Shown: one piece after another, positions 1 to 34,667 of the stretch | How positions within the stretch are numbered: the first letter of the stretch is position 1 | How the letters are laid out: every line of letters begins with the position of its first letter | Assembly: GCA_043815085.1 (NCBI GenBank) | Contig: JBDRJG010000005.1 | Coordinates: 1-45,608, forward strand | Length of the DNA: 45,608 nt | Direction of reading: 5' to 3' | Origin: Candidatus Iainarchaeum sp. | GTDB lineage: Archaea > Nanobdellota > Nanobdellia > Pacearchaeales > GW2011-AR1 | The notes under the pieces: model-generated | The model's input: the letters and a program-made list of their open reading frames with translations, nothing else | Told to the model about the DNA's origin: nothing | The model's database searches: none | Made by a program: the position numbers and the translations under genes

Positions 1-111
1 ACACGCCCCGACCGAGAATATAACTTTTTGTTAGGTTCCCACTTTTGAGGAAATTAAGTCAAGATTTTCTCCATTTTCTTTATAAAGAAATACTTTACGT
101 TCCAAAGCTCA

Positions 112-163
112 CGCCGACACTGGGAATTGAACCCAGGAGCCCCGAAGGGCCGAGATTAGCAAT
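112..163 (-). tRNA. 3' half of interrupted tRNA-Ser(GCT) (partner of 1315..1351)
   Basis: Minus strand reads ATTGCTAA-TCTCG-GCCCTTCGGGGCTC-CTGGG-TTCAATT-CCCAG-TGTCGGC-G: anticodon loop, 3' anticodon stem, long variable arm, T arm, acceptor 3' strand and G73. TGTCGGC pairs with GCCGACA at 1345-1351. Confidence 0.9.
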
Positions 164-164
164 A

Positions 165-1091
165 TTATATAAAATTGTTTTTGCATTCTAAAAATAATTT
201 ATTGGATATTTCTAATTTTTCTTTAACTAACTTTTTACTAATATTTTTTATTCCCAAAACTTTCATAAGTGATCTATTCAAAAATTCTCTCTTTTCTTGT
301 TCAATTGAATTATCAAATGTCCAGAGAGTTAAGCAACAAACTATAAATCTGTAAGCAAATATAAAAGGATATTCTTTGAATGTTTTCTTTAGATATTCTA
401 AATTATATTTTACTTTTAATTTACCTTCCTTCTTTATTCTAAGATAATATGCTTCTGAAAAGCTACCCATTATTTCCTTAATTTTTTTATTATTAAATTT
501 GTAGAATTCTTCAAATAATCCATAAAACTTTGTATTTTTATTTTTATCTATAGATTTTATAGAATTTAATAATCTAAAACTTGGAAAAGGAAGGTTAAAT
601 CTTGGGGGCAAAGAGTGCATCATTATAAAACTTGGACTTTCCATACTATACAAATAATAAAATGCTTTTTCATAATCTCCTTTTTTAAAATCACTTTCTG
701 CTAATTTCTGAAATTTCTTTGCTTGCTTTAAAGAATCTTTAAATTTTTTCTTAGCTAATTTTTCATTGAACTTTGGAATTTTTATTTTTCCTGTTTTGCC
801 ATAAATAATCTTTTCTTCAGGCAATAAATTAGAATTTTTTAAATCCTCAATACTAAAATAGTGTTCTTCTATACATTTTCCTTTAAATTTGTAAAATCCT
901 CTTTTATTTTCAGGAAGGTCTTTTTTCTTAACATAAAATACAATATCTATATCACTATGTTTTGTTTCATCTCCACGAGCAACACTTCCTCCAAGAATAA
1001 CTGCTTGGATCGGTTCTTTTTTAATTTTTTCATTTACTAAAGAATTAACAACATCCATGAATTTTTGATGAATCTTTCTCTCTTTTTTCAT
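165..1091 (-). CDS. Pol-beta superfamily nucleotidyltransferase-domain protein with helical C-terminus
   Basis: Motif LGGSVARGDETKHSDIDIV. Start moved to ATG 1091 (MKKERK) because the longer ORF overlaps the tRNA; TTTAAA lies about 25 bp upstream. Confidence 0.8.
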   Translation of the reverse strand: MKKERKIHQKFMDVVNSLVNEKIKKEPIQAVILGGSVARGDETKHSDIDIVFYVKKKDLPENKRGFYKFKGKCIEEHYFSIEDLKNSNLLPEEKIIYGKTGKIKIPKFNEKLAKKKFKDSLKQAKKFQKLAESDFKKGDYEKAFYYLYSMESPSFIMMHSLPPRFNLPFPSFRLLNSIKSIDKNKNTKFYGLFEEFYKFNNKKIKEIMGSFSEAYYLRIKKEGKLKVKYNLEYLKKTFKEYPFIFAYRFIVCCLTLWTFDNSIEQEKREFLNRSLMKVLGIKNISKKLVKEKLEISNKLFLECKNNFI

Positions 1092-1125
1092 AAATCGTAT
1101 AAGCTTAATAAGTTTAAAAAATAAA

Positions 1126-1228
1126 CGCCCAGAGCAGGATTCGAACCTACGCACCCCGAAGGGTCAAGATTTTCGCAATCAAACAAAATCATAGCAATCT
1201 TGTGCGTTAACCACTCCGCCATCTGGGC
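1126..1228 (-). tRNA. tRNA-Ser(GCT) with 21-nt canonical 37/38 intron (1171..1191)
   Basis: GCCCAGA/TCTGGGC acceptor stem, CAAGA/TCTTG anticodon stem, GCT anticodon, long variable arm, GTTCGAAT T loop. BHB: TTGC pairs with intron GCGA, with 3-nt bulges TAT and AAA. Confidence 0.92.
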
Positions 1229-1314
1229 ATGAATATAATGTGATTTTTGATGATTTAAACTTTTTGATTGTTATTTTTAATAATTTACTAACTGCCCTAT
1301 TTTTGTTTACTAGT

Positions 1315-1351
1315 TTAGCAATCTCGTGCAATACCACTATGCGATGTCGGC
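1315..1351 (-). tRNA. 5' half of interrupted tRNA-Ser(GCT)
   Basis: Minus strand reads GCCGACA-TC-GCATAGTGGTATTGC-A-CGAGA-TTGCTAA. TTTAAA lies about 25-30 bp upstream. Confidence 0.9.
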
Positions 1352-1443
1352 TTAATTCTATAGAATATTTTAAGAATTTAAAGGTTTGCGTTGTGAATGA
1401 AAAGAAAAATAGAATATTTAATTATGAAACAAACAATAAAATA

Positions 1444-2319
1444 TTAATATAATGCTCGGATTCCTGCAATATCTCCACTTGCTAAGTCTCTTTTTGAGAT
1501 ATCTCCATTCCAAGAATAACCATACATTGTTTGGTCAGAGCATGCACTATTATACAAATCATCCATCCCAACTGCATGTCCAAGCTCGTGTGTTGCTATG
1601 TTTTCAAAATCCATCACTGATGAATTAATCGTTGCGTCACCCCATATAAAGTTATCATTGAATACCATATCCCATTCAACTAATTCTCTGTTACTAGGCC
1701 TTCCTCCGAAAATACCCCACACAACTGTAAATGCTATTGTATCACTTGCACCCAAATCATCAAAATATACTTCATTTTTATTATCAGTTGTATAAAAGTC
1801 TGCTACTAAAGTTTCATTAGTAGAACTTCCTGTTCCAAGAATATCATAATTTGCTGCAGTTTCCCATTTGACAATACTATCTGCTAAATTGCCTGTTATA
1901 AATCCTTCACTTAATCCATCCTCATTATTTGTATTAACAATATAATTTTCAACTGATTTCCATTTTGCTCCTTTTGATAAAAAGCCATAGCAAGAACTTG
2001 TATCTGGTTCTGTTGGATCTTCTCCTCCACCACAATCAAGTGGGCATTTATTTATATTTTCACCGGGCTCACAAATCCCATTACCACAAACAGTCCCTGG
2101 TTTTGCAAACTTTTCTTTATCTCTAATCATAAAAGCATAACCTTCTACAACTTTTCCTTTGTCAATTGTCTTACCAAGATAAAAAACTCCTGGGGAAACC
2201 TCTACTGCATGTTTTGGAAGATTAAATTTCTGGTTTTGATTTTTTGCAGAAGCAACCACAAGTCCAACAGAAATCATTAACGTAAACACTACACATAATG
2301 CTATTATTGTTTTTTTCAT
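1444..2319 (-). CDS. Secreted matrixin/metzincin-type zinc metalloprotease
   Basis: Signal peptide, HELGHAVGMDD zinc motif, Met-turn QTMYG, Cys-rich CGNGICEPGE..CPLDC module. Confidence 0.85.
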   Translation of the reverse strand: MKKTIIALCVVFTLMISVGLVVASAKNQNQKFNLPKHAVEVSPGVFYLGKTIDKGKVVEGYAFMIRDKEKFAKPGTVCGNGICEPGENINKCPLDCGGGEDPTEPDTSSCYGFLSKGAKWKSVENYIVNTNNEDGLSEGFITGNLADSIVKWETAANYDILGTGSSTNETLVADFYTTDNKNEVYFDDLGASDTIAFTVVWGIFGGRPSNRELVEWDMVFNDNFIWGDATINSSVMDFENIATHELGHAVGMDDLYNSACSDQTMYGYSWNGDISKRDLASGDIAGIRALY

Positions 2320-2420
2320 ACTATAACAGGGAAGTTCAGATATTTAAAACTAACCCCCCAATAGAATAGCAGGTTTTAGGTTTTAGATAAATTTAAATAT
2401 TCTTTTTTTCTTAAGCAATT

Positions 2421-4664
2421 ATGTTGAAAGAAAGAGGTAAGTTATTTGGCATTATATTAATTAGTGTTGTTTTACTATCTATGTTTTCTGTTATTATTGT
2501 TTCTGCTCAGGAGGATAATGCCACAACAGACCAACCACAACCCAATTATACTGAGACCGATAAAGAAGGAGAGGATGTTAAGGAAGGAAATTGTTTTGAT
2601 TATTGTAATGATTATTGGTCTGTTGCAATGCCTACATGTCCTGGAGATTATGTAGTTGATGGCACATATCCTGATTGTACTTGTGAATGGTTTTGTTATG
2701 AAGATGATGAAAGTTATAGATGTGAAGATATGGATAAAGAAGATTGTGAATCAGCAGATGATTGTGAAAGTATTTTAGGATCTAGTTTTTGTGAGGGAGA
2801 TACTTGTACTACAGATATGGTTTGGAAAGGTTGTAGATATAAAGGTGATGAGTTTTTTGAAGATTATGAAGGTGAAGAACTAAAACAAGAAGCAGGAACT
2901 ACTCCCGGTGATGCTTTTTATTTTATAGATAAGTTTTTTGATAGATTTGGTGATCAATTAGATGTAAAAGAAGAAAGAGTTGCAGAAATTAAAGCAATGG
3001 TTGAAGCAGGAGATTTAGAATCTGCAAAGATAGCTTTAGAAGAATATATGAAATTAGCAGAAGAGCTTGAGCATGAAATTGACCCTGAAAGAAAAGAAGA
3101 TGCAAAAAGAAGTGCTGCTGCAATTAGAGCTACTATGAAAGATATTAAAGGTCAACTTCCTGAAGGAGAAAGAGGGAAATTTGTTAGTGAGATTATGAGT
3201 AAAGAACATTCAATAGCTACTGCGGCTGAAATTTCTTCTAAGATTAAAGAATTATGTGTTCAATTAGCTGAATTAGATCCATTAGAATATGAGAAAATGT
3301 GTAAGACTGATGATGATGCTCCTAAGTGGCAGAAAAGACTTGACAAGGATTTAACAGAAGAGCAAGAAAAAATAGCTAGAGAATTTGTAAGTATAATGAA
3401 ACAATGTTTTAAAACTTCTGGCCAAGATTGTAAATGTAAAGATATTCCTTTTTATGATTTTTCAATTGCTTGTTCTAAAGCAGCGCCTTTAGCTACTGCT
3501 TGTGATATTGGGGAAGATGAAATAGCTTGTGATGAATTAGATAATTTGGATATGCCTGAGTTGCCTGATTGGTTGCAACCAATTTGGGAAGATTTGGAGG
3601 GGGGGATGAAAGAAGCCCAGTATGATATGCATATGCCTCCTGAATGTGTTGAAGAAGGAGCTACAACTCCAAAAGAATGTAACAAGATTATGATAAAAAC
3701 ACATGCTCCTCTTGAATGTAAGGCAGCATTATTAGCAGCAGATATTCAAACTGAAAATGAAGGAAAAAAAATTTGTGATAGAATTATGTTTGAATTACAT
3801 ACTCCTAAACAATGTATTGATAAAGGAATAACAGACCCTGATGAATGTGCAAAATTTATGGATAGTTTTAGAGGACCTACGAGTCTTGGAGGAGGACCTG
3901 GATTTGGTCCTGATTGTATGAGTATTGAAGATCCAATGAAAAGATTGGAATGTTATGATAATAAAGGTAGTGAGATGGGAGAATTTTATGGTCCTATTGG
4001 TGAAGGAGAAATGCCTGAAGGAGAAATAACTTGGCAGTGTAAAGAGAACAGAATACACTGGCCTCCTGATTGTGAAACTTTTATGAGAGAAGAATGGCCT
4101 GAGCAAGAAAAAATGAGAATAGAAGAAAGTGAACAAAGAAGGGCAGAGGAACAGGATTGGAGAGTACAAGAAAAAGAATGTGCAGCAAGTTGTGACTTAG
4201 TAAATGGATGGTGGGATTTCCGTGAAGGAAAGTGTGTATGTTATGCTAATGAAGGTACTGGCCCAAAACCAGGAGAATGGGGTAGTGAAGAATGGGAAGC
4301 TAGTGGTGGTGGCTCTGGATGTGGTGATTGTTCTAGTCAATGCCCTGCTGGCGCTTATACTGATTGTGTGAATGATAAATGTGTGTGTGGAGAAGTACCC
4401 ACTGGCCCACAATATGGCGAAGGAGAAGGTCTAGAGAGCCCGGAGATTTTGATAATACAGGAGAAACCTCCTGAAGAAACATATACAGAGCCCGACAATA
4501 CAGTAGAACCCCCAGAGACTACTCCTGAACCTGAACCGACCCCCGAACCAGAACCAGAACCGGAACCAGAACCGGAACCGGAACCAGAATCGGAACCAGA
4601 ACCTGAACCAGTAACAGGAAATGTTATTACTGGAAATGCATTTTTAGATTATTATTTTAGATAA
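2421..4664 (+). CDS. Large secreted acidic Cys-rich surface protein with DUF5667-like helical region and PE-repeat stalk
   Basis: N-terminal hydrophobic signal, many Cys pairs, AGTTPGDAFYFIDK..EERVAE segment, (PE)n near the C-terminus. Confidence 0.7.
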   Translation: MLKERGKLFGIILISVVLLSMFSVIIVSAQEDNATTDQPQPNYTETDKEGEDVKEGNCFDYCNDYWSVAMPTCPGDYVVDGTYPDCTCEWFCYEDDESYRCEDMDKEDCESADDCESILGSSFCEGDTCTTDMVWKGCRYKGDEFFEDYEGEELKQEAGTTPGDAFYFIDKFFDRFGDQLDVKEERVAEIKAMVEAGDLESAKIALEEYMKLAEELEHEIDPERKEDAKRSAAAIRATMKDIKGQLPEGERGKFVSEIMSKEHSIATAAEISSKIKELCVQLAELDPLEYEKMCKTDDDAPKWQKRLDKDLTEEQEKIAREFVSIMKQCFKTSGQDCKCKDIPFYDFSIACSKAAPLATACDIGEDEIACDELDNLDMPELPDWLQPIWEDLEGGMKEAQYDMHMPPECVEEGATTPKECNKIMIKTHAPLECKAALLAADIQTENEGKKICDRIMFELHTPKQCIDKGITDPDECAKFMDSFRGPTSLGGGPGFGPDCMSIEDPMKRLECYDNKGSEMGEFYGPIGEGEMPEGEITWQCKENRIHWPPDCETFMREEWPEQEKMRIEESEQRRAEEQDWRVQEKECAASCDLVNGWWDFREGKCVCYANEGTGPKPGEWGSEEWEASGGGSGCGDCSSQCPAGAYTDCVNDKCVCGEVPTGPQYGEGEGLESPEILIIQEKPPEETYTEPDNTVEPPETTPEPEPTPEPEPEPEPEPEPEPESEPEPEPVTGNVITGNAFLDYYFR
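4524..4610 (+). repeat. Coding hexanucleotide repeat (ccNgaa)n encoding a Pro-Glu stalk
   Basis: gaaccagaaccggaacc... tandem copies are directly visible. Confidence 0.9.
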
Positions 4665-4828
4665 TTTTATTATTGAGATATTTTTCTTTTTTTGAATCTT
4701 TTTCTGATTATTAATAATTCCTAGTATAGTGCCACTTTTATAGTTCTGAATATATGGTTTTCGGTTTGATGTTTATCCCAAAAACATTTATAATCTCAAA
4801 AAAATTATATTTCTTAGAAGAGGGGAAG

Positions 4829-5392
4829 ATGAACAAAACACTAAAACTACTTATAATATCAGATATATTTGTAATAAGTGGTTTTGGACTCATTGCTCCT
4901 ATTCTTGCAATTTTTATAAAAGACAATCTCGTGGGAGGAACAATTATTGCAGCAGGTGTCGCAAGTGCAATATTTTTAATAACTCATTCTCTTTTGCAAA
5001 TACTTTTTTCATATAAATTCAATCCAAAAGACAGGTTGTGGATGCTTAGAGTAGGAACTGCTTTAATAGTATTTATTCCATTTGGATATATCTTCTCAAC
5101 TCATATTTATCATATTTATTTTGTCCAGTTCATATATGGTGTTGGAGCAGCTTTTGCTTATCCATCCTGGTCCAGCTTTTTTACTTCTAATTTAGAAAAA
5201 GGAAAAAGAGGATTTCAATATTCTCTTTATTCTTCATCAGTAGGTATAGGAACAGCAATCACAGCAGGGATTGGAGCTTGGCTTGCTGAAAAAACAAGCT
5301 TCCAGCTTGTATTTATTTTAACAGGAATTCTTGCAATAATCGGGTTCTTAATATTATTCAGATTAGAAAAGAGAATTCTGAGAAGAATATAG
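4829..5392 (+). CDS. Half-size MFS-type membrane transporter (about 6 TM)
   Basis: Hydrophobic helices with MFS-like segments QFIYGVGAAFAYPSW and KRGFQYS. ATG 4829 follows GAGGGG. Confidence 0.7.
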   Translation: MNKTLKLLIISDIFVISGFGLIAPILAIFIKDNLVGGTIIAAGVASAIFLITHSLLQILFSYKFNPKDRLWMLRVGTALIVFIPFGYIFSTHIYHIYFVQFIYGVGAAFAYPSWSSFFTSNLEKGKRGFQYSLYSSSVGIGTAITAGIGAWLAEKTSFQLVFILTGILAIIGFLILFRLEKRILRRI

Positions 5393-7374: not shown

Positions 7375-7426
7375 ACGATTATTTTTAAACAACAATTCTT
7401 AAAAACCAATTTTCTTTAACATCTAT

Positions 7427-8092
7427 ATGTGGATATTGGGAATTGATGAAGCAGGAAGAGGTCCGGTGATAGGTCCAATGGTTCTGGCAGGGTGTTTAAT
7501 CACAGAAGAGGCCCAACTGGAATTAAAAAAGCTTGGAATTAAAGACAGCAAGGAATTAACACAAAAGAGAAGAGAATATCTGTCAGAAAAAATAAAGGTG
7601 ATAGCAGAAACTTTTGAAATAGTTCTTTCATATCCAGTTGAAATAGACCTCTCTCTTAATGGTGGAACAAATTTAAATAAATTAGAAGCAGCAAAAATAG
7701 CAGAAATAATTAATAAAGTAAACAGAGGATACGGGAAGATAAGAGTAATAATTGACTGCCCCTCTGTAACAATTGAAAAATGGACAGACCATCTGAAAAC
7801 AAAAATAGAAACTCTGCATAATCTTGAAATTGTTTGCGAGCACAAGGCAGATAAAAATCACGTTGCTGTTTCAGCAGCTTCTATTCTTGCAAAGACTATC
7901 CGCGAGAAAGAAATGGACAAGCTCAGAGAAATACATGGAATTGAAATCGGCTCTGGATATACTTCTGACCCCTCTACAATTCGCTTTCTCGAACTAAATG
8001 CAGATAATAACAAGAATTCTGACATCTTTAGAAAGACTTGGGAAACTTGGAAAAGAGCATCTGACAAACTCATTCAGAGAAAATTATTTTGA
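7427..8092 (+). CDS. rnhB: Ribonuclease HII
   Basis: GIDEAGRGPVIGP, DSKEL, HKAD..VSAASILAK, GSGY; C-terminal PIP-box-like QRKLF. Confidence 0.97.
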   Translation: MWILGIDEAGRGPVIGPMVLAGCLITEEAQLELKKLGIKDSKELTQKRREYLSEKIKVIAETFEIVLSYPVEIDLSLNGGTNLNKLEAAKIAEIINKVNRGYGKIRVIIDCPSVTIEKWTDHLKTKIETLHNLEIVCEHKADKNHVAVSAASILAKTIREKEMDKLREIHGIEIGSGYTSDPSTIRFLELNADNNKNSDIFRKTWETWKRASDKLIQRKLF

Positions 8093-8949: not shown

Positions 8950-11808
8950 ATGGCTTATATAAAGAAGTTGGTGATGCATGGTTTCAAAAGTTTTCCAAAA
9001 AAAACAGAAATTCCATTCACCTCAGGCATCAATGTTGTTCTCGGTCCAAATGGTTCAGGAAAATCAAATATTTCAGATGCTTTGTGCTTTGTATTGGGGA
9101 GATTGAGTATTAAATCCATGCGTGCAGCAAAAGCGAGAAATCTTATTTTTTTGGGAACAAAGGCGGCTTCTCCTGCAAAAGAAGCAGTTGTCGAAGTTGT
9201 TTTTGACAATTCAGATAATGTCTTCTCTGTTGAAGGGCAGGAAGTTTCAGTAAAAAGAATTGTAAGATTAAACGGACAGAGTATTTACAAAATAAATAAT
9301 GAAACTAAAACAAGGCAGGAAGTTCTCTCCCTCCTCGCTCAGGCAGGAATAGATCCAAATGGATTTAATATAATTCTTCAGGGAGAAATTCAGAGTTTTG
9401 TTAGAATGCATTCAGAAGAAAGAAGAAAGATAGTTGAAGAAGTCTCTGGAATTTCTATCTATGAAATGAGGAAAGAAAAATCCTTGAGAGAGCTTGAAAA
9501 GACAGAGGATAAATTAAAGGAAGTTAGTTCAATATTGAGAGAGAGAACAACCTATCTGAATAATCTTGAAAAAGAGAGAGAGCAGGCATTAAAATATCAA
9601 AAACTCGAGAAAGACATAAAAAAATTCAAAGCGAGCATAATTAATGTTGATTTGTTAAAAAGAAAAAAGCATCTGGGAGAGATTAATGAATCTGCTAATA
9701 AAAAGAACAAAGAAATAGAAAAAATAAAGCACGAGATATTCAATCTGGAAAAAGAGATAAAGAATTTCGAAGAAAAAATAAATTTAATCAACAAGAAAAT
9801 ACAGGAATCCACGGGCTTGGAGCAGGAAAAGCTGAATCAGGAAATAGCAAATACAAGAGCAGAAATTGCTGGACTGGACGTGAGAATTGAGAATTATAAG
9901 AGTAAGCTTTCAAGCATAGCAAAGCAAAAACAGGAACTTCAAGCGTTGATAAAAAACAGTGAAGCTGAGATTAACGATTTAAAAAAGGAATTTCCTTCTG
10001 GGACGAAAAAGGAAAAAGAAGTAAATTTGAAAAAGCAGGAATTGGAAAAATTAGAAGAACAAAGAAAAAAATTTTATATGATTAAGTCCGAATTAAAATC
10101 CATAAAAGAAAGATTTGAGGATAAAAAATCTCTTTTGCAGAGCTATAATAACGAATCAGGATTTTTAGTAAAGCAGATTGATTCTCTTTCAAGAGAACTC
10201 TTTGATAAGAAAACAATTCCAGAAAGAGTTGAAGAATTAAAATTAGTTTTAGCGGATAAAAAGGAATTTTTAGAGAGTTTTTCCAAACGCGAGAGAGAAC
10301 TGGAGAAAATAAATTACTCTCATGAAAACGAGATAGAAAAGCAGAACAAAATAATGGGCACTATTTCAAAAATGGATATCTGCCCCCTCTGCAAGAGCAA
10401 AATAACAAAAGAACACCTAGGGCAAATTAACAATGAAATCTTTCCAATAATTAATTCTCTAAAAAAAGAGCTGGAAAATTCAGATAAAGAACTGAGCCAG
10501 ATAGGGAATAAAAAAGAAATGTTAAAACAGGAGATAGAGCAACTCGATGTTGAAATTTTGAGGAGAGAGCAGGATTTGATAAAGATTTCAAATGTGAATG
10601 ACAAAAAAAACCAGATAAAAAATATCAATGATAAGATGTTGATAGCAAAAAAAGAATTATCTGAGCTCGAAAAATTAAAAATTAATCTTGAGAAAAATTT
10701 TGAAGAATATTCCAATGTAGAGCAGAAATACGAAACAGCAAGAATAGAGGTGCAGGAAATTTCTTTGAGAACAAAGGAGAATCTCAATTCTGAAATATCT
10801 TTTAAGCAGAGAGAATATGAGCGCTCAAAGATTTCTTTGAAGCAGTTTTCAAGAGAAGAAGAGGATATAAACGGAGAACTTTCCTCTTTAAAGAAACAGC
10901 TGGAAGAAAAAGGGAATTATCTGAATAAAAAAAGAAAACAGGAAGAAGAGTTGACAGAAAAATTCCATAAACTTATTGGTGAGAGAGATTCATTTCAGAC
11001 AAGAATAAGAAAAAATGAGCAGGACTCTTCTATTAAAAAGAATCTGGTCTATAATATTGAACAAGAAGTAAATAATGTAAAGATTGAGAAGGCGAGAGTG
11101 GATGCAGAAATTGAAAATTTCGAGATTGAGATGCTTGGATTTCCTAATGTGGAATTAATAAAAGGAAGCAGAGAGTTTCTGGTCGAGAGATTAAATAAGA
11201 CTCAAGACATATTTTCAGGTTTAGGTCCTGTAAATATGCGTTCTTTAGAGGTTTATAATGAGATAAAAAAAGAATATGATTTAATCAGAGAAAAAGCAGA
11301 TAGCATAAACAAAGAAAGAGAGAGCATTTTGACGATAATTCATAATATCGATGTAAGAAAAAGGAAGATTTTTCTTAAAACATTGGAGAGTTTAAATAAG
11401 ATTTTTTCTGAGAACTTTGCGCGTATAAGCACTAAAGGACAGGTTTCGCTTGAATTGGAAAATAAAAAAGAGCCGTTTGAGGGAGGAATTGGAATTTTAG
11501 TAAAGACAGGACACGGAAAATATTTTGATGTAACTTCTCTTTCAGGAGGAGAGCAGACAATGGTTGCCCTTTCCCTTATTTTTGCGATACAGGAGTTAAA
11601 TCCTTACTGTTTTTATATTCTTGATGAGATTGATGCAGCTCTTGACAAGAGAAATTCAGAGAGGCTCGCAAATCTGCTGAAGAGATATATGCAAAAAGGG
11701 CAATATATTGTTATAACCCATAATGATGAGGTAATAACGAGAGCCACTAATCTCTACGGAATTTCTATGCACGAAGGTGTATCTAAGGTTGTGAGTTTGA
11801 GAGTTTAA
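8950..11808 (+). CDS. smc: SMC-family ATPase with central CXXC zinc hook
   Basis: GFKSF, GPNGSGKSN, LSGGE, LDEIDAALD, long coiled coils, CPLC at residue 478 of 952. Confidence 0.88.
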   Translation: MAYIKKLVMHGFKSFPKKTEIPFTSGINVVLGPNGSGKSNISDALCFVLGRLSIKSMRAAKARNLIFLGTKAASPAKEAVVEVVFDNSDNVFSVEGQEVSVKRIVRLNGQSIYKINNETKTRQEVLSLLAQAGIDPNGFNIILQGEIQSFVRMHSEERRKIVEEVSGISIYEMRKEKSLRELEKTEDKLKEVSSILRERTTYLNNLEKEREQALKYQKLEKDIKKFKASIINVDLLKRKKHLGEINESANKKNKEIEKIKHEIFNLEKEIKNFEEKINLINKKIQESTGLEQEKLNQEIANTRAEIAGLDVRIENYKSKLSSIAKQKQELQALIKNSEAEINDLKKEFPSGTKKEKEVNLKKQELEKLEEQRKKFYMIKSELKSIKERFEDKKSLLQSYNNESGFLVKQIDSLSRELFDKKTIPERVEELKLVLADKKEFLESFSKRERELEKINYSHENEIEKQNKIMGTISKMDICPLCKSKITKEHLGQINNEIFPIINSLKKELENSDKELSQIGNKKEMLKQEIEQLDVEILRREQDLIKISNVNDKKNQIKNINDKMLIAKKELSELEKLKINLEKNFEEYSNVEQKYETARIEVQEISLRTKENLNSEISFKQREYERSKISLKQFSREEEDINGELSSLKKQLEEKGNYLNKKRKQEEELTEKFHKLIGERDSFQTRIRKNEQDSSIKKNLVYNIEQEVNNVKIEKARVDAEIENFEIEMLGFPNVELIKGSREFLVERLNKTQDIFSGLGPVNMRSLEVYNEIKKEYDLIREKADSINKERESILTIIHNIDVRKRKIFLKTLESLNKIFSENFARISTKGQVSLELENKKEPFEGGIGILVKTGHGKYFDVTSLSGGEQTMVALSLIFAIQELNPYCFYILDEIDAALDKRNSERLANLLKRYMQKGQYIVITHNDEVITRATNLYGISMHEGVSKVVSLRV

Positions 11809-34592: not shown

Positions 34593-34667
34593 TGGCCCCG
34601 AAGGGATTTGAACCCTCGACACCTGGATTAAAAGTCCAGTGCTCTAACCAGACTGAGCTACGGAGCC
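34593..34667 (-). tRNA. tRNA-Lys(TTT)
   Basis: GGCTCCG/CGGGGCC acceptor stem, CTGGA-CTTTTAA-TCCAG anticodon arm, GTTCAAAT T loop. Confidence 0.95.

Follow-up and report, generated by a model that had tools for sequence, protein, structure and literature searches.

How does an archaeon come to carry the two halves of one serine tRNA gene more than a kilobase apart, with a second and complete gene for the same anticodon between them? The question is raised by the first 1.4 kb of a 45,608-nucleotide stretch of DNA (the window), which is the entire contig JBDRJG010000005.1 of a Candidatus Iainarchaeum sp. genome (assembly GCA_043815085.1; 616 kb in 32 contigs, 31% GC, 84% complete, 3% contamination). 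An outer tRNA-Ser(GCT) gene in two pieces, an intact inner tRNA-Ser(GCT) gene and a nucleotidyltransferase gene all lie there on the minus strand. The structure is real and unusual, and the arrangement has so far been described only for some bacterial viruses. We propose, at a probability of roughly 0.6, that a tRNA-Ser(GCT) gene was split when a member of a family of small cassettes lacking an integrase recombined into its anticodon loop, and that the whole tRNA gene carried by the cassette complements the loss.

The 5′ half of the outer gene (1315..1351) comprises the acceptor strand, the D arm and the 5′ strand and loop of the anticodon stem, and is preceded by a TTTAAAT promoter-like box (1376..1382) 24 nt before its 5′ end, a spacing seen at several tRNA genes of this genome. 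The last eight nucleotides of this half, ATTGCTAA (1322..1315), are repeated directly as the first eight (163..156) of the 3′ half (112..163), which continues with the 3′ strand of the anticodon stem, a long variable arm, the T arm, the acceptor strand and a discriminator G. We refer to this duplicated anticodon-loop 8-mer, which had been picked out by the sequence-only reading of the window, as the core. The figure of 1159 bp given in that reading is right as the spacing of the two copies; the insert proper is 1151 bp long (164..1314). With their flanks the copies agree at 10 of 11 positions (153–163 and 1312–1322), and the first three nucleotides past the left core, ACT, resemble the TCT of the tRNA. 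Beyond this the left core runs into non-tRNA sequence, and the insert does not restore the tRNA gene. When the outer halves were joined by script, they gave an 81-nt cloverleaf of −36.3 kcal/mol. ARAGORN missed this split gene, and Rfam returned just a T-arm match to tmRNA at 120–137.

Read along the minus strand, the insert consists of a left end of 86 nt (1229..1314) with the TTTAAAT box of the inner tRNA (1259..1253), the inner tRNA itself (1126..1228), a T-rich run directly 3′ of it that is a likely terminator (1116..1125), the nucleotidyltransferase gene (165..1091) and an A/T-rich arm (164..184) that adjoins the right core and encodes the last residues of the enzyme, KNNFI, and its stop. 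Together, arm and core (184..156) read GCAAAAACAATTTTATATAATATTGCTAA. The insert occurs once in the genome, and no terminal inverted repeats joining its ends were found among the 25 pairs listed of 56. A DDE transposon or miniature inverted-repeat element was rejected on the lack of such repeats among those listed and the single copy; the 8-bp duplication, taken alone, would fit one.

We searched 60 relatives with the region and read the tRNA-Ser(GCT) genes of 18 of them. The outer-type gene was whole in all 18 (13 intronless, five with introns of 46–55 nt), and the insert was missing from this site in every one. This comparison, which had been suggested together with the original claim, supports the view that an intronless gene was split by an insertion. 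In genome G018 the two exons of the gene are the same as the two outer halves of the window (100% identity for each half over the aligned stretch, and all 81 nt by reading), and a chance origin of the split structure is excluded because of this exact match to an orthologous tRNA. The flanks of the G018 gene could not be aligned to the window, and a neighbouring protein is 85% identical. We note that the G018 gene (contig C76; L018, 5109–5244) and the conserved neighbour gene stand in the opposite relative orientation to that seen in this genome, G013, G002, G020, G003 and G017. The five intron-bearing genes (G018, G003, G013, G004 and G007, at loci L018, L008, L014, L015 and L021) have canonical introns of a single family, with two hairpins that covary through compensatory changes, and these introns are unrelated to the ends of the insert. 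No intron occupies this site in the other 18 of 23 congeners, whether examined or matched, which points to frequent gain or loss of the intron.

Archaeal tRNA introns at this position offered a direct comparison with the insert in terms of the bulge-helix-bulge (BHB) motif. Our script demanded a 4-bp central helix between two 3-nt bulges, with an outer and an inner helix. The intron of the inner tRNA scored 4/5/4 pairs (central/outer/inner), and those of the five congeners 4/5/1–2. At the outer junctions no BHB was obtained in any of the nine registers that the 8-nt repeat allows, the best canonical one reaching 2/5/0; the possibility of a giant intron had been named as the finding that would overturn the claim of an insertion, and it found no support here. 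Co-folding of the junction regions gave no BHB either. One co-fold paired positions ~+21 to +40 of the insert with the 3′ junction, an arrangement that is not a BHB and that destroys the anticodon stem. Complementary flanks able to form a BHB, as in split tRNA genes, were not found at the outer halves, and the sole TATA-like run before the 3′ half ends 3 nt from the core, compared with the usual 24 nt. The genome encodes a splicing endonuclease (PF01974 at C17:30482–30736, 97.6 bits), which does not discriminate between the readings: with it true introns are removable, and an insert without a BHB offers it no substrate.

The inner gene is a complete and different tRNA-Ser(GCT), as had been noticed from the letters. 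It is a class II tRNA with the anticodon GCT (exon 1, 1228..1192; intron, 1191..1171; exon 2, 1170..1126; Rfam tRNA score 52.7 bits) and a 21-nt intron that forms a full BHB (four central, five outer and four inner pairs). Its acceptor, D and T stems are unlike those of the outer gene, and its TTTAAAT box lies 24 nt before the 5′ end, like that of the outer tRNA; the boxes of the genome's tRNA genes lie 20–28 nt, mostly 24 nt, upstream of the 5′ end. The closest sequence was the intronless tRNA-Ser(GCT) of G001, which differs at five exon positions, and the same type of D arm is also found in the resident gene of G627. The flanks of the inner tRNA showed no homology to the G001 locus beyond A/T richness. 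This genome, at 84% completeness, yielded no further intact tRNA-Ser(GCT), and AGY codons make up 28% of its 9,376 serine codons, in keeping with the claim that the insert supplies a replacement. With its intron option ARAGORN called the inner gene tRNA-Phe(GAA) by means of a shifted intron, and only the GCT register yields the full BHB; without that option neither tRNA-Ser(GCT) was found. The locus thus serves as a warning for annotation, given that standard tRNA finders missed the split gene and labelled its replacement as Phe.

The nucleotidyltransferase is a two-domain protein of 308 amino acids that matches PF01909 (E = 1.3 × 10⁻⁸; 35.5 bits against a cut-off of 21) and PF18765, and it is the only open reading frame (ORF) of the insert with homologues or a family match. 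Its stop codon (167..165) lies one base from the right repeat, as first noticed. Profile and structure searches had been recommended. The G-S...D-x-D motif of nucleotidyltransferases (G35, S36, D47 and D49) is invariant in 25 sequences, the predicted model has a pLDDT of 92.8, and its best Foldseek matches were HalB, LinB and ANT(4′)/kanamycin nucleotidyltransferase at TM scores of 0.28–0.37; a profile search of PDB sequences gave weak nucleotidyltransferase matches only. From the model, we predict a two-domain fold of the KNTase/ANT(4′)/LinB/HalB kind that would catalyse nucleotidyl transfer and would be cargo rather than machinery. We counted 47 homologues, at 37–79% identity, in other small archaeal genomes. 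Homology to this family stops exactly at the arm (...EC(E/K)KLK in homologues, ...ECKNNFI here), and the arm is therefore a separate module fused to a captured gene.

Several other identities for the enzyme were considered and rejected. It is not the CCA-adding enzyme, of which a canonical archaeal version is present on contig C21, and its own family was not found in the 60 relatives (E ≤ 1e-5), nor in 400 genomes sampled from the phylum (E ≤ 1e-20). As a defence or toxin protein it found no support: NCBIfam and PADLOC profiles matched the nucleotidyltransferase motif only, all below their cut-offs. The same holds for toxins of the MenT/AbiEii type, which modify the tRNA acceptor; no such family appeared among the Pfam, NCBIfam, PADLOC or Foldseek matches. 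Nor can the enzyme serve as the marker of an element, as its other loci have housekeeping neighbours (exosome subunits, enolase and S2, or Dus, or MacB-type permeases) and viral contigs held none of its relatives. A tRNA lay directly upstream of the homologue at one of 27 scanned loci, a set that includes two bacterial nucleotidyltransferase-motif matches (L032 and L033). At that locus (L052, Ga0114931_10164048) the homologue (1258–1761) is found 229 nt downstream of an intron-bearing tRNA-Ile(GAT) gene (905–1029), in the same orientation as here.

The right end of the insert has counterparts in related genomes. Displaced tRNA-Ser(GCT) 3′ halves that start at the core are present in seven other genomes of the family, G006 among them. 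A search pattern that did not demand the arm (four A/T, the core and a variable arm) matched in 7 of 251 family genomes, including this one, and never in the reversed control; besides G627 and G591, it brought in G621, G601 and G619. On contig C25 of G006 the complete tRNA-Ser(GCT) has no intron. Downstream of it come, in order, a MazE/ParE pair of 0.58 kb, an arm rich in A/T, the letters ATTGCTA, an intron of 24 nt and a further 3′ half, identical to the one in the complete gene. A similarly small unit on contig C28 of the same genome, bounded by a tRNA 3′-end fragment, consists of a ribbon-helix-helix (RHH) pair, an arm, ATTACTAA and a decayed 3′ half. In G035, two displaced 3′ halves with identical arms lie 6.4 kb apart on contig C34, a third lies at a contig end, and a further, decayed one follows a 167-amino-acid ORF that runs into the core. 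Pattern matches that lacked a tRNA half (G007:C3, G024:C5, G626:C15 and G619:C5) were judged to be due to chance.

In four of these units (G006:C25, G627, G591 and G035:C51) a cassette-borne 3′ half at the other copy of the core rebuilds the tRNA, which lies 0.6–1.5 kb upstream of the displaced half (0.6 kb in G627 and 1.45 kb in G591), and one or two intact genes reach right up to the arm. Such a half is missing from the insert in the window. No complete tRNA was present within 1.5 kb of the displaced half in G601, G621 or G619. The cargo varies from the MazE/ParE and RHH pairs of G006 to a serine hydrolase in G627 and ORFs with no assigned function in G591, and the gene for D-aminoacyl-tRNA deacylase lies 3′ of the displaced half in both G627 and G591. 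Across this unrelated cargo the arm adjoining the core is conserved: that of G006:C28 matches the window at 18 of 21 positions, a value reached by none of 200,000 random genome 21-mers, and over the last 15 nt G006:C28 agrees at 14 positions, G627 and G591 at 13 each and G035:C34 at 12 (for random genome 15-mers, P(≥13) = 2 × 10⁻⁵ and P(≥12) = 2.2 × 10⁻⁴). The units of G006:C25, G035, G621, G601 and G619 were found without demanding the arm. Patterns resembling attP had no matches in viral contigs. We also observed an extra 35–45 nt in the T-arm region of the displaced halves of G627 (L095, ~7407–7495), G591 (L094, ~10686–10780) and G621 (L097), which are either a non-canonical intron of the former gene or the result of decay.

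Several features bear on the age and source of the insert. Its GC content is 25.4%, compared with a genome mean of 31.1% (SD 2.4), and falls within the lowest 0.58% of 2,912 windows of the same length. Together with the absence of the enzyme from the relatives, this deviation makes the insert look foreign. The event also looks recent, as had been suggested from the undecayed halves: these remain identical to the exons of G018, which argues for a young insertion, and the GC content of the insert is still deviant.

The surroundings show that the tRNA-Ser(GCT) locus is an integration hot spot. The usual order in relatives is a conserved gene (the homologue of window 4817–5392), tRNA-Ser(GCT), 1–2 kb of sequence and the deacylase gene. 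Compared with this order, the present genome has an additional 3.4 kb upstream, the 1.15-kb insert in the loop and a 5.6-kb island downstream on contig C11. This island is bounded by two direct repeats of 104 nt (C11 16727–16830 and 20020–20123, or L001 8728–8831 and 12021–12124) that are 99% alike and 3,293 bp apart, and that begin with the last 21 nt of the tRNA from the T loop onward (20 of 21 positions; window 111–131), so that two more copies of the tRNA end lie 2.3 and 5.6 kb downstream on C11. Genes between and beside the repeats encode a Fic protein, an uncharacterized protein of 270 amino acids, an HNH endonuclease and proteins of the Zn-ribbon, PD-(D/E)XK-like and matrixin-like kinds; the more distal of the two repeats adjoins the deacylase gene. 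The repeats look like tandem integrations of the T-loop type.

Some further observations were made around the locus and elsewhere in the genome. Upstream, 3.4 kb (window 1352–4816) separate the 5′ end of the tRNA from the conserved gene, compared with 45–120 nt in G018, G013 and G002. This stretch encodes a matrixin-like secreted peptidase (1444–2319, minus strand) and a Cys-rich secreted protein of 747 amino acids (2421–4664, plus strand), and no copy of the 5′ part of the tRNA was found at its far end. The 71-nt non-tRNA core of the 104-nt repeats has a 99% copy on contig C16 (7112–7182) and a weak second one (4076–4126); it was not found in the 60 relatives, the stretches searched had no Rfam match, and the neighbours on C16 were uninformative. 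The genes for tRNA-Lys(TTT) (window 34593–34667), tRNA-Lys(CTT) (C9:12878–12952) and a tRNA-Thr (C19:5006–5094) are preceded by a shared, conserved leader that lacks a TATA-like box at its customary position, and the two Lys genes also share an identical 25-nt 3′ flank; a common processing signal or duplication of a unit may lie behind this.

To what extent do the assembly and the reads bear out the junctions? Contigs of this genome overlap at their ends by 141 nt, and window positions 1..141 are also the terminus of C11, which carries the locus on downstream of the tRNA. The two tRNA halves (37 and 52 nt) are shorter than the 141-nt assembly word, so that each word that crosses a junction comes from one read. 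A Logan contig of 1,899 nt from run X1, based on k = 31, follows the window from 1 to 955 without a mismatch, extends 944 nt past its start and bears out the 3′ junction; the depth in this run is 9.2 over the insert and 6.8–9.2 over the flanks. Window positions 956–1100 were uncovered by the X1 contigs, and one of them diverges from the window eight letters before 1315. In run X2, a contig ends at 163 with three unlike letters. Both ends can be explained by 31-letter words common to the tRNAs of relatives. Runs X2 and X3 contain both flanks at 100% identity and leave window 201–700 without cover, and a similar hole is present even in X1.

A recombinase that could serve such cassettes was sought in this genome and its relatives. 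The genome has two tyrosine recombinases (PF00589), on contigs C15 and C9. The former is XerA-like and near-universal in the relatives searched. The latter (C9:23184–24008) is 43% identical to it; of 23 congeners, only 5 have an orthologue at 80–87% identity, and several of these orthologues lie at contig ends. We regard the C9 enzyme as a candidate mobile-element integrase. No recombinase was found in the C11 island or on G035:C34; a resolvase-like match at C11:8523–8726 was weak and below threshold.

Building on the observed structure, its absence from relatives, the failure of its junctions to form a BHB, its foreign composition and the core and arm that it shares with other units, we envisage the following course of events. 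Small units that lack an integrase, of ~0.6–1.5 kb where a rebuilt tRNA shares the contig and with 6.4 kb between the halves of G035:C34, would accumulate at the tRNA-Ser(GCT) gene in related genomes, the conserved A/T-rich arm adjoining the core being their hallmark. Ordinary members would carry a tRNA 3′ half next to the core, rebuild the gene and displace the old 3′ half downstream. The member in the window would have, in place of this half, a whole tRNA-Ser(GCT) gene that stems from another lineage and brings a promoter and an intron of its own. It would also have captured a nucleotidyltransferase gene, the final codons of which were exchanged for the arm. Its circular form would comprise arm, core, left end, tRNA and enzyme gene, and would recombine with the chromosomal anticodon loop; in this way, a foreign cassette of 1,151 bp would have entered the resident single-copy tRNA-Ser(GCT) gene of a 0.6-Mb genome. 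A crossover in the 8-nt core would leave that core at both junctions. The exchange was probably site-specific and carried out by a recombinase acting in trans. As the cassette brings no 3′ half at the core the resident gene would stay split, and without a BHB it could not be spliced; AGY codons would then have to be read by the cassette tRNA, and the cell would survive loss of the cassette only if the excision were exact.

A bolder version of this proposal, which we put forward tentatively and think unlikely, treats the anticodon loop as an integron-like capture site in which a recombinase acting in trans, possibly that of the host, stacks cassettes that bring their own promoters. Each cassette would end in the conserved arm and core, and one that arrives with a whole tRNA would destroy the resident gene and make the host dependent on it. 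The cassette in the window would then be a minimal addiction element that works by swapping a tRNA and has neither recombinase nor toxin.

Other explanations have to be weighed against recombination of such a cassette. Could the outer tRNA still be made, either by removal of a 1,151-nt giant intron or by separate transcription of the halves and their joining in trans? In favour of this, neither half has decayed, a promoter box still precedes the 5′ half, an intron occurs at exactly this position in five congeners, and the genome contains a splicing endonuclease and introns, of up to 131 nt, in 11 of the 28 tRNAs found by ARAGORN. Set against this, all six true introns tested passed the BHB script and the outer junctions passed in none of nine mature-sequence registers, the junction co-folds had no BHB, and the ends of the insert are unrelated to the intron of the congeners. 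The supposed intron would contain a T-run terminator after the inner tRNA, the A/T box lies 3 nt rather than 24 nt before the core of the 3′ half, and an 8-nt duplication is expected for recombination and not for an intron. We rejected a giant intron or split tRNA on BHB geometry and co-folds, and regard continued production of the outer tRNA as highly unlikely. An assembly artefact, in which two tRNA-Ser(GCT) loci or strains were merged via shared tRNA words, is barely credible. The graph does break here, with the contig starting 111 nt from the 3′ half and overlapping C11 by 141 nt; the same samples hold many related tRNA-Ser sequences; and X1 has its gap at 956–1100 and its contig that departs eight letters before 1315. 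Yet the tRNA pieces of 37 and 52 nt are far below the 141-nt word, the independent X1 contig links sequence from the C11 side to window 1–955 with zero mismatches, and the depth of the insert in that run matches that of the flanks.

A serious rival, although we hold it to be unlikely, sees in the insert the remnant of a larger plasmid or virus that had integrated here, formerly had its own integrase and targeted this anticodon loop. Deletions would have left just the tRNA, the enzyme gene and one att arm, much like an integrase-less element between att sites, and the insert would not represent a self-contained type of cassette. This would suit a hot spot at which copies of the tRNA 3′ end lie 2.3 and 5.6 kb downstream around Fic, HNH, PD-(D/E)XK-like and further accessory genes, and would suit the extra 3.4 kb upstream in comparison with G018, G013 and G002, the 6.4 kb between the displaced halves of G035:C34 and the lack of a complete tRNA within 1.5 kb in G601, G621 and G619; integrase genes, moreover, are often at contig ends in these genomes. 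It sits poorly with the units that have a rebuilt tRNA, which measure 0.6–1.5 kb and have intact genes up to the arm, with the similarly small G006:C28 and with an arm that is fused in frame to the enzyme gene, and the insert has no phage or plasmid genes; the attP-like patterns drew a blank in viral contigs. Quite improbable, in our view, is a one-off illegitimate insertion, through microhomology, of a chromosomal fragment from another archaeon that was kept because it included tRNA-Ser(GCT), with no dedicated recombination system. Junction identity of just 8 bp, the lack of an integrase and of inverted terminal repeats, and the single copy would all be expected, the enzyme is an ordinary chromosomal gene elsewhere, and chromosomal genes similar to the inner tRNA exist in G001 and G627. 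An isolated accident does not account for the same core bordering displaced 3′ halves in seven other genomes, for the 18-of-21 match to the G006:C28 arm that no random 21-mer equalled, or for the exact replacement of the enzyme's C terminus by the arm.

Recombination of an integrase-less cassette thus remains the reading that we prefer, and the following points weigh against it. Membership of the family rests on a 21-nt A/T-rich arm and the core, in DNA of 31% GC. The arm was a required part of the pattern by which G006:C28, G627 and G591 were found, and the independent evidence for these three is limited to the tRNA half behind it. The left end of the insert is unlike those of the other cassettes, which begin with a tRNA 3′ half, and the insert is single-copy, with the same cassette not seen elsewhere. 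Of the original claim of an integrase-type event in the anticodon loop, one part stands, in that recombination has repeatedly used the same core across the family; the integrase finds no support, as no integrase or recombinase gene was found in the insert or the related cassettes. A recombinase of the C9 type was not found in G006, and no PF00589 gene was found on the att-bearing contigs of five att-bearing genomes, several such genes lying at contig ends. In run X3 there is a joint from 155 to 1315 that skips 1,159 letters, with eight shared letters and a side of 29. Its loose ends at 112 and 1356 are unlike the flanks of the window, and the joined form probably derives from a relative. Finally, a second tRNA-Ser(GCT) may lie elsewhere, the genome being 84% complete, and it is we who infer that the outer gene is inactive and that the host depends on the inner tRNA.

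The locus also bears on the proposal that tRNA introns shield against integration, which the sequence-only reading had invoked for the intron of the inner tRNA. This intron does break an 11-mer that is common to the mature inner tRNA and the target, as any canonical intron would. The canonical intron site (37/38) is located 3′ of the core, and the displaced half of G006:C25 has an intron directly after ATTGCTA. Because this half keeps its intron, either an intron-bearing gene was the recombination partner or recombination removed the intron from the working copy. The former would mean that the intron gave no protection, and the evidence speaks against a simple shield at this site, an idea that is weakened accordingly. 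G006:C25 fits the account of Sugahara et al. (2012, PMC3293823), by which integration moves introns in and out. The relative's core, 5′ of an intron that the displaced half retained, amounts to a natural test of the protection idea.

How does the arrangement compare with known systems? Integron cassettes, CIMEs (integrase-less and att-flanked) and IMEXs (which exploit the Xer of the host) are small elements for which a recombinase acts in trans. The present units are like them in having one or two genes, no recombinase and a conserved terminal site, and in being stacked at one chromosomal site. They are unlike integrons in that no integron integrase and no attI/attC structure was found, the site is in an essential tRNA gene and the genes have promoter-like boxes of their own. 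The defined 29-nt site of such a recombinase-less family might serve for site-specific integration in organisms that lack genetics.

With islands formed by tyrosine integrases (Islander, PMC4383910; a review of archaeal tyrosine recombinases, PMC8371274), the locus shares a tRNA target, a crossover in the anticodon loop and direct repeats at both ends. The cassettes of G006, G035, G627 and G591 behave as such islands do, in that the tRNA is rebuilt and its old 3′ part displaced. Islands as characterized there carry an integrase and restore the gene; the insert in the window does neither, and the cassette units are 10–100 times smaller. The tRNA-Thr(GGU) locus of Caldiarchaeum subterraneum (PMC3293823) is also similar: a tRNA fragment lies beside a complete tRNA of the same anticodon and different intron content, with an insert of 1–2 kb, and the authors explained this heterogeneity by integration of a mobile element and discussed introns in relation to protection from integration. 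In Caldiarchaeum the fragment is a 5′ one, located upstream of a gene that was rebuilt, and the insert encodes a putative recombinase. In the window both halves of the old gene persist, on either side of a complete tRNA unrelated to them, and no recombinase is present. Archaeal split and permuted tRNA genes (Chan, Cozen & Lowe 2011, PMC3218864) likewise have two halves encoded apart, and tRNA genes are presented in that work as places of rearrangement and integration. The split tRNAs it covers have complementary flanks that form a BHB and join the halves, in contrast to the present halves, which form no BHB and have a complete replacement gene between them. In this sense the locus is a case, caught in the act, of the splitting and replacement of an archaeal tRNA gene with both old halves still perfect. 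In the open-access literature we found no archaeal case described in which a complete tRNA lies within the anticodon loop of an isoacceptor gene.

The nearest parallel in mechanism is the tRNA-dependent lysogeny of actinobacteriophages (Guerrero-Bustamante & Hatfull 2024, PMC10865867). These phages integrate into tRNA genes through a short common core (~10 bp, compared with 8–11 here), do not rebuild the tRNA and complement the host with a tRNA of their own, which was proven by genetics. They are entire temperate phages of bacteria with their own tyrosine integrase; the present unit is a 1.15-kb insert in an archaeon, with one enzyme gene and with no integrase or phage genes. The tRNA that it carries has a BHB intron. 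If our reading is correct, disruption and repayment of a tRNA, so far proven only in actinobacterial temperate phages, would also occur in ultrasmall archaea, in a unit of just two genes.

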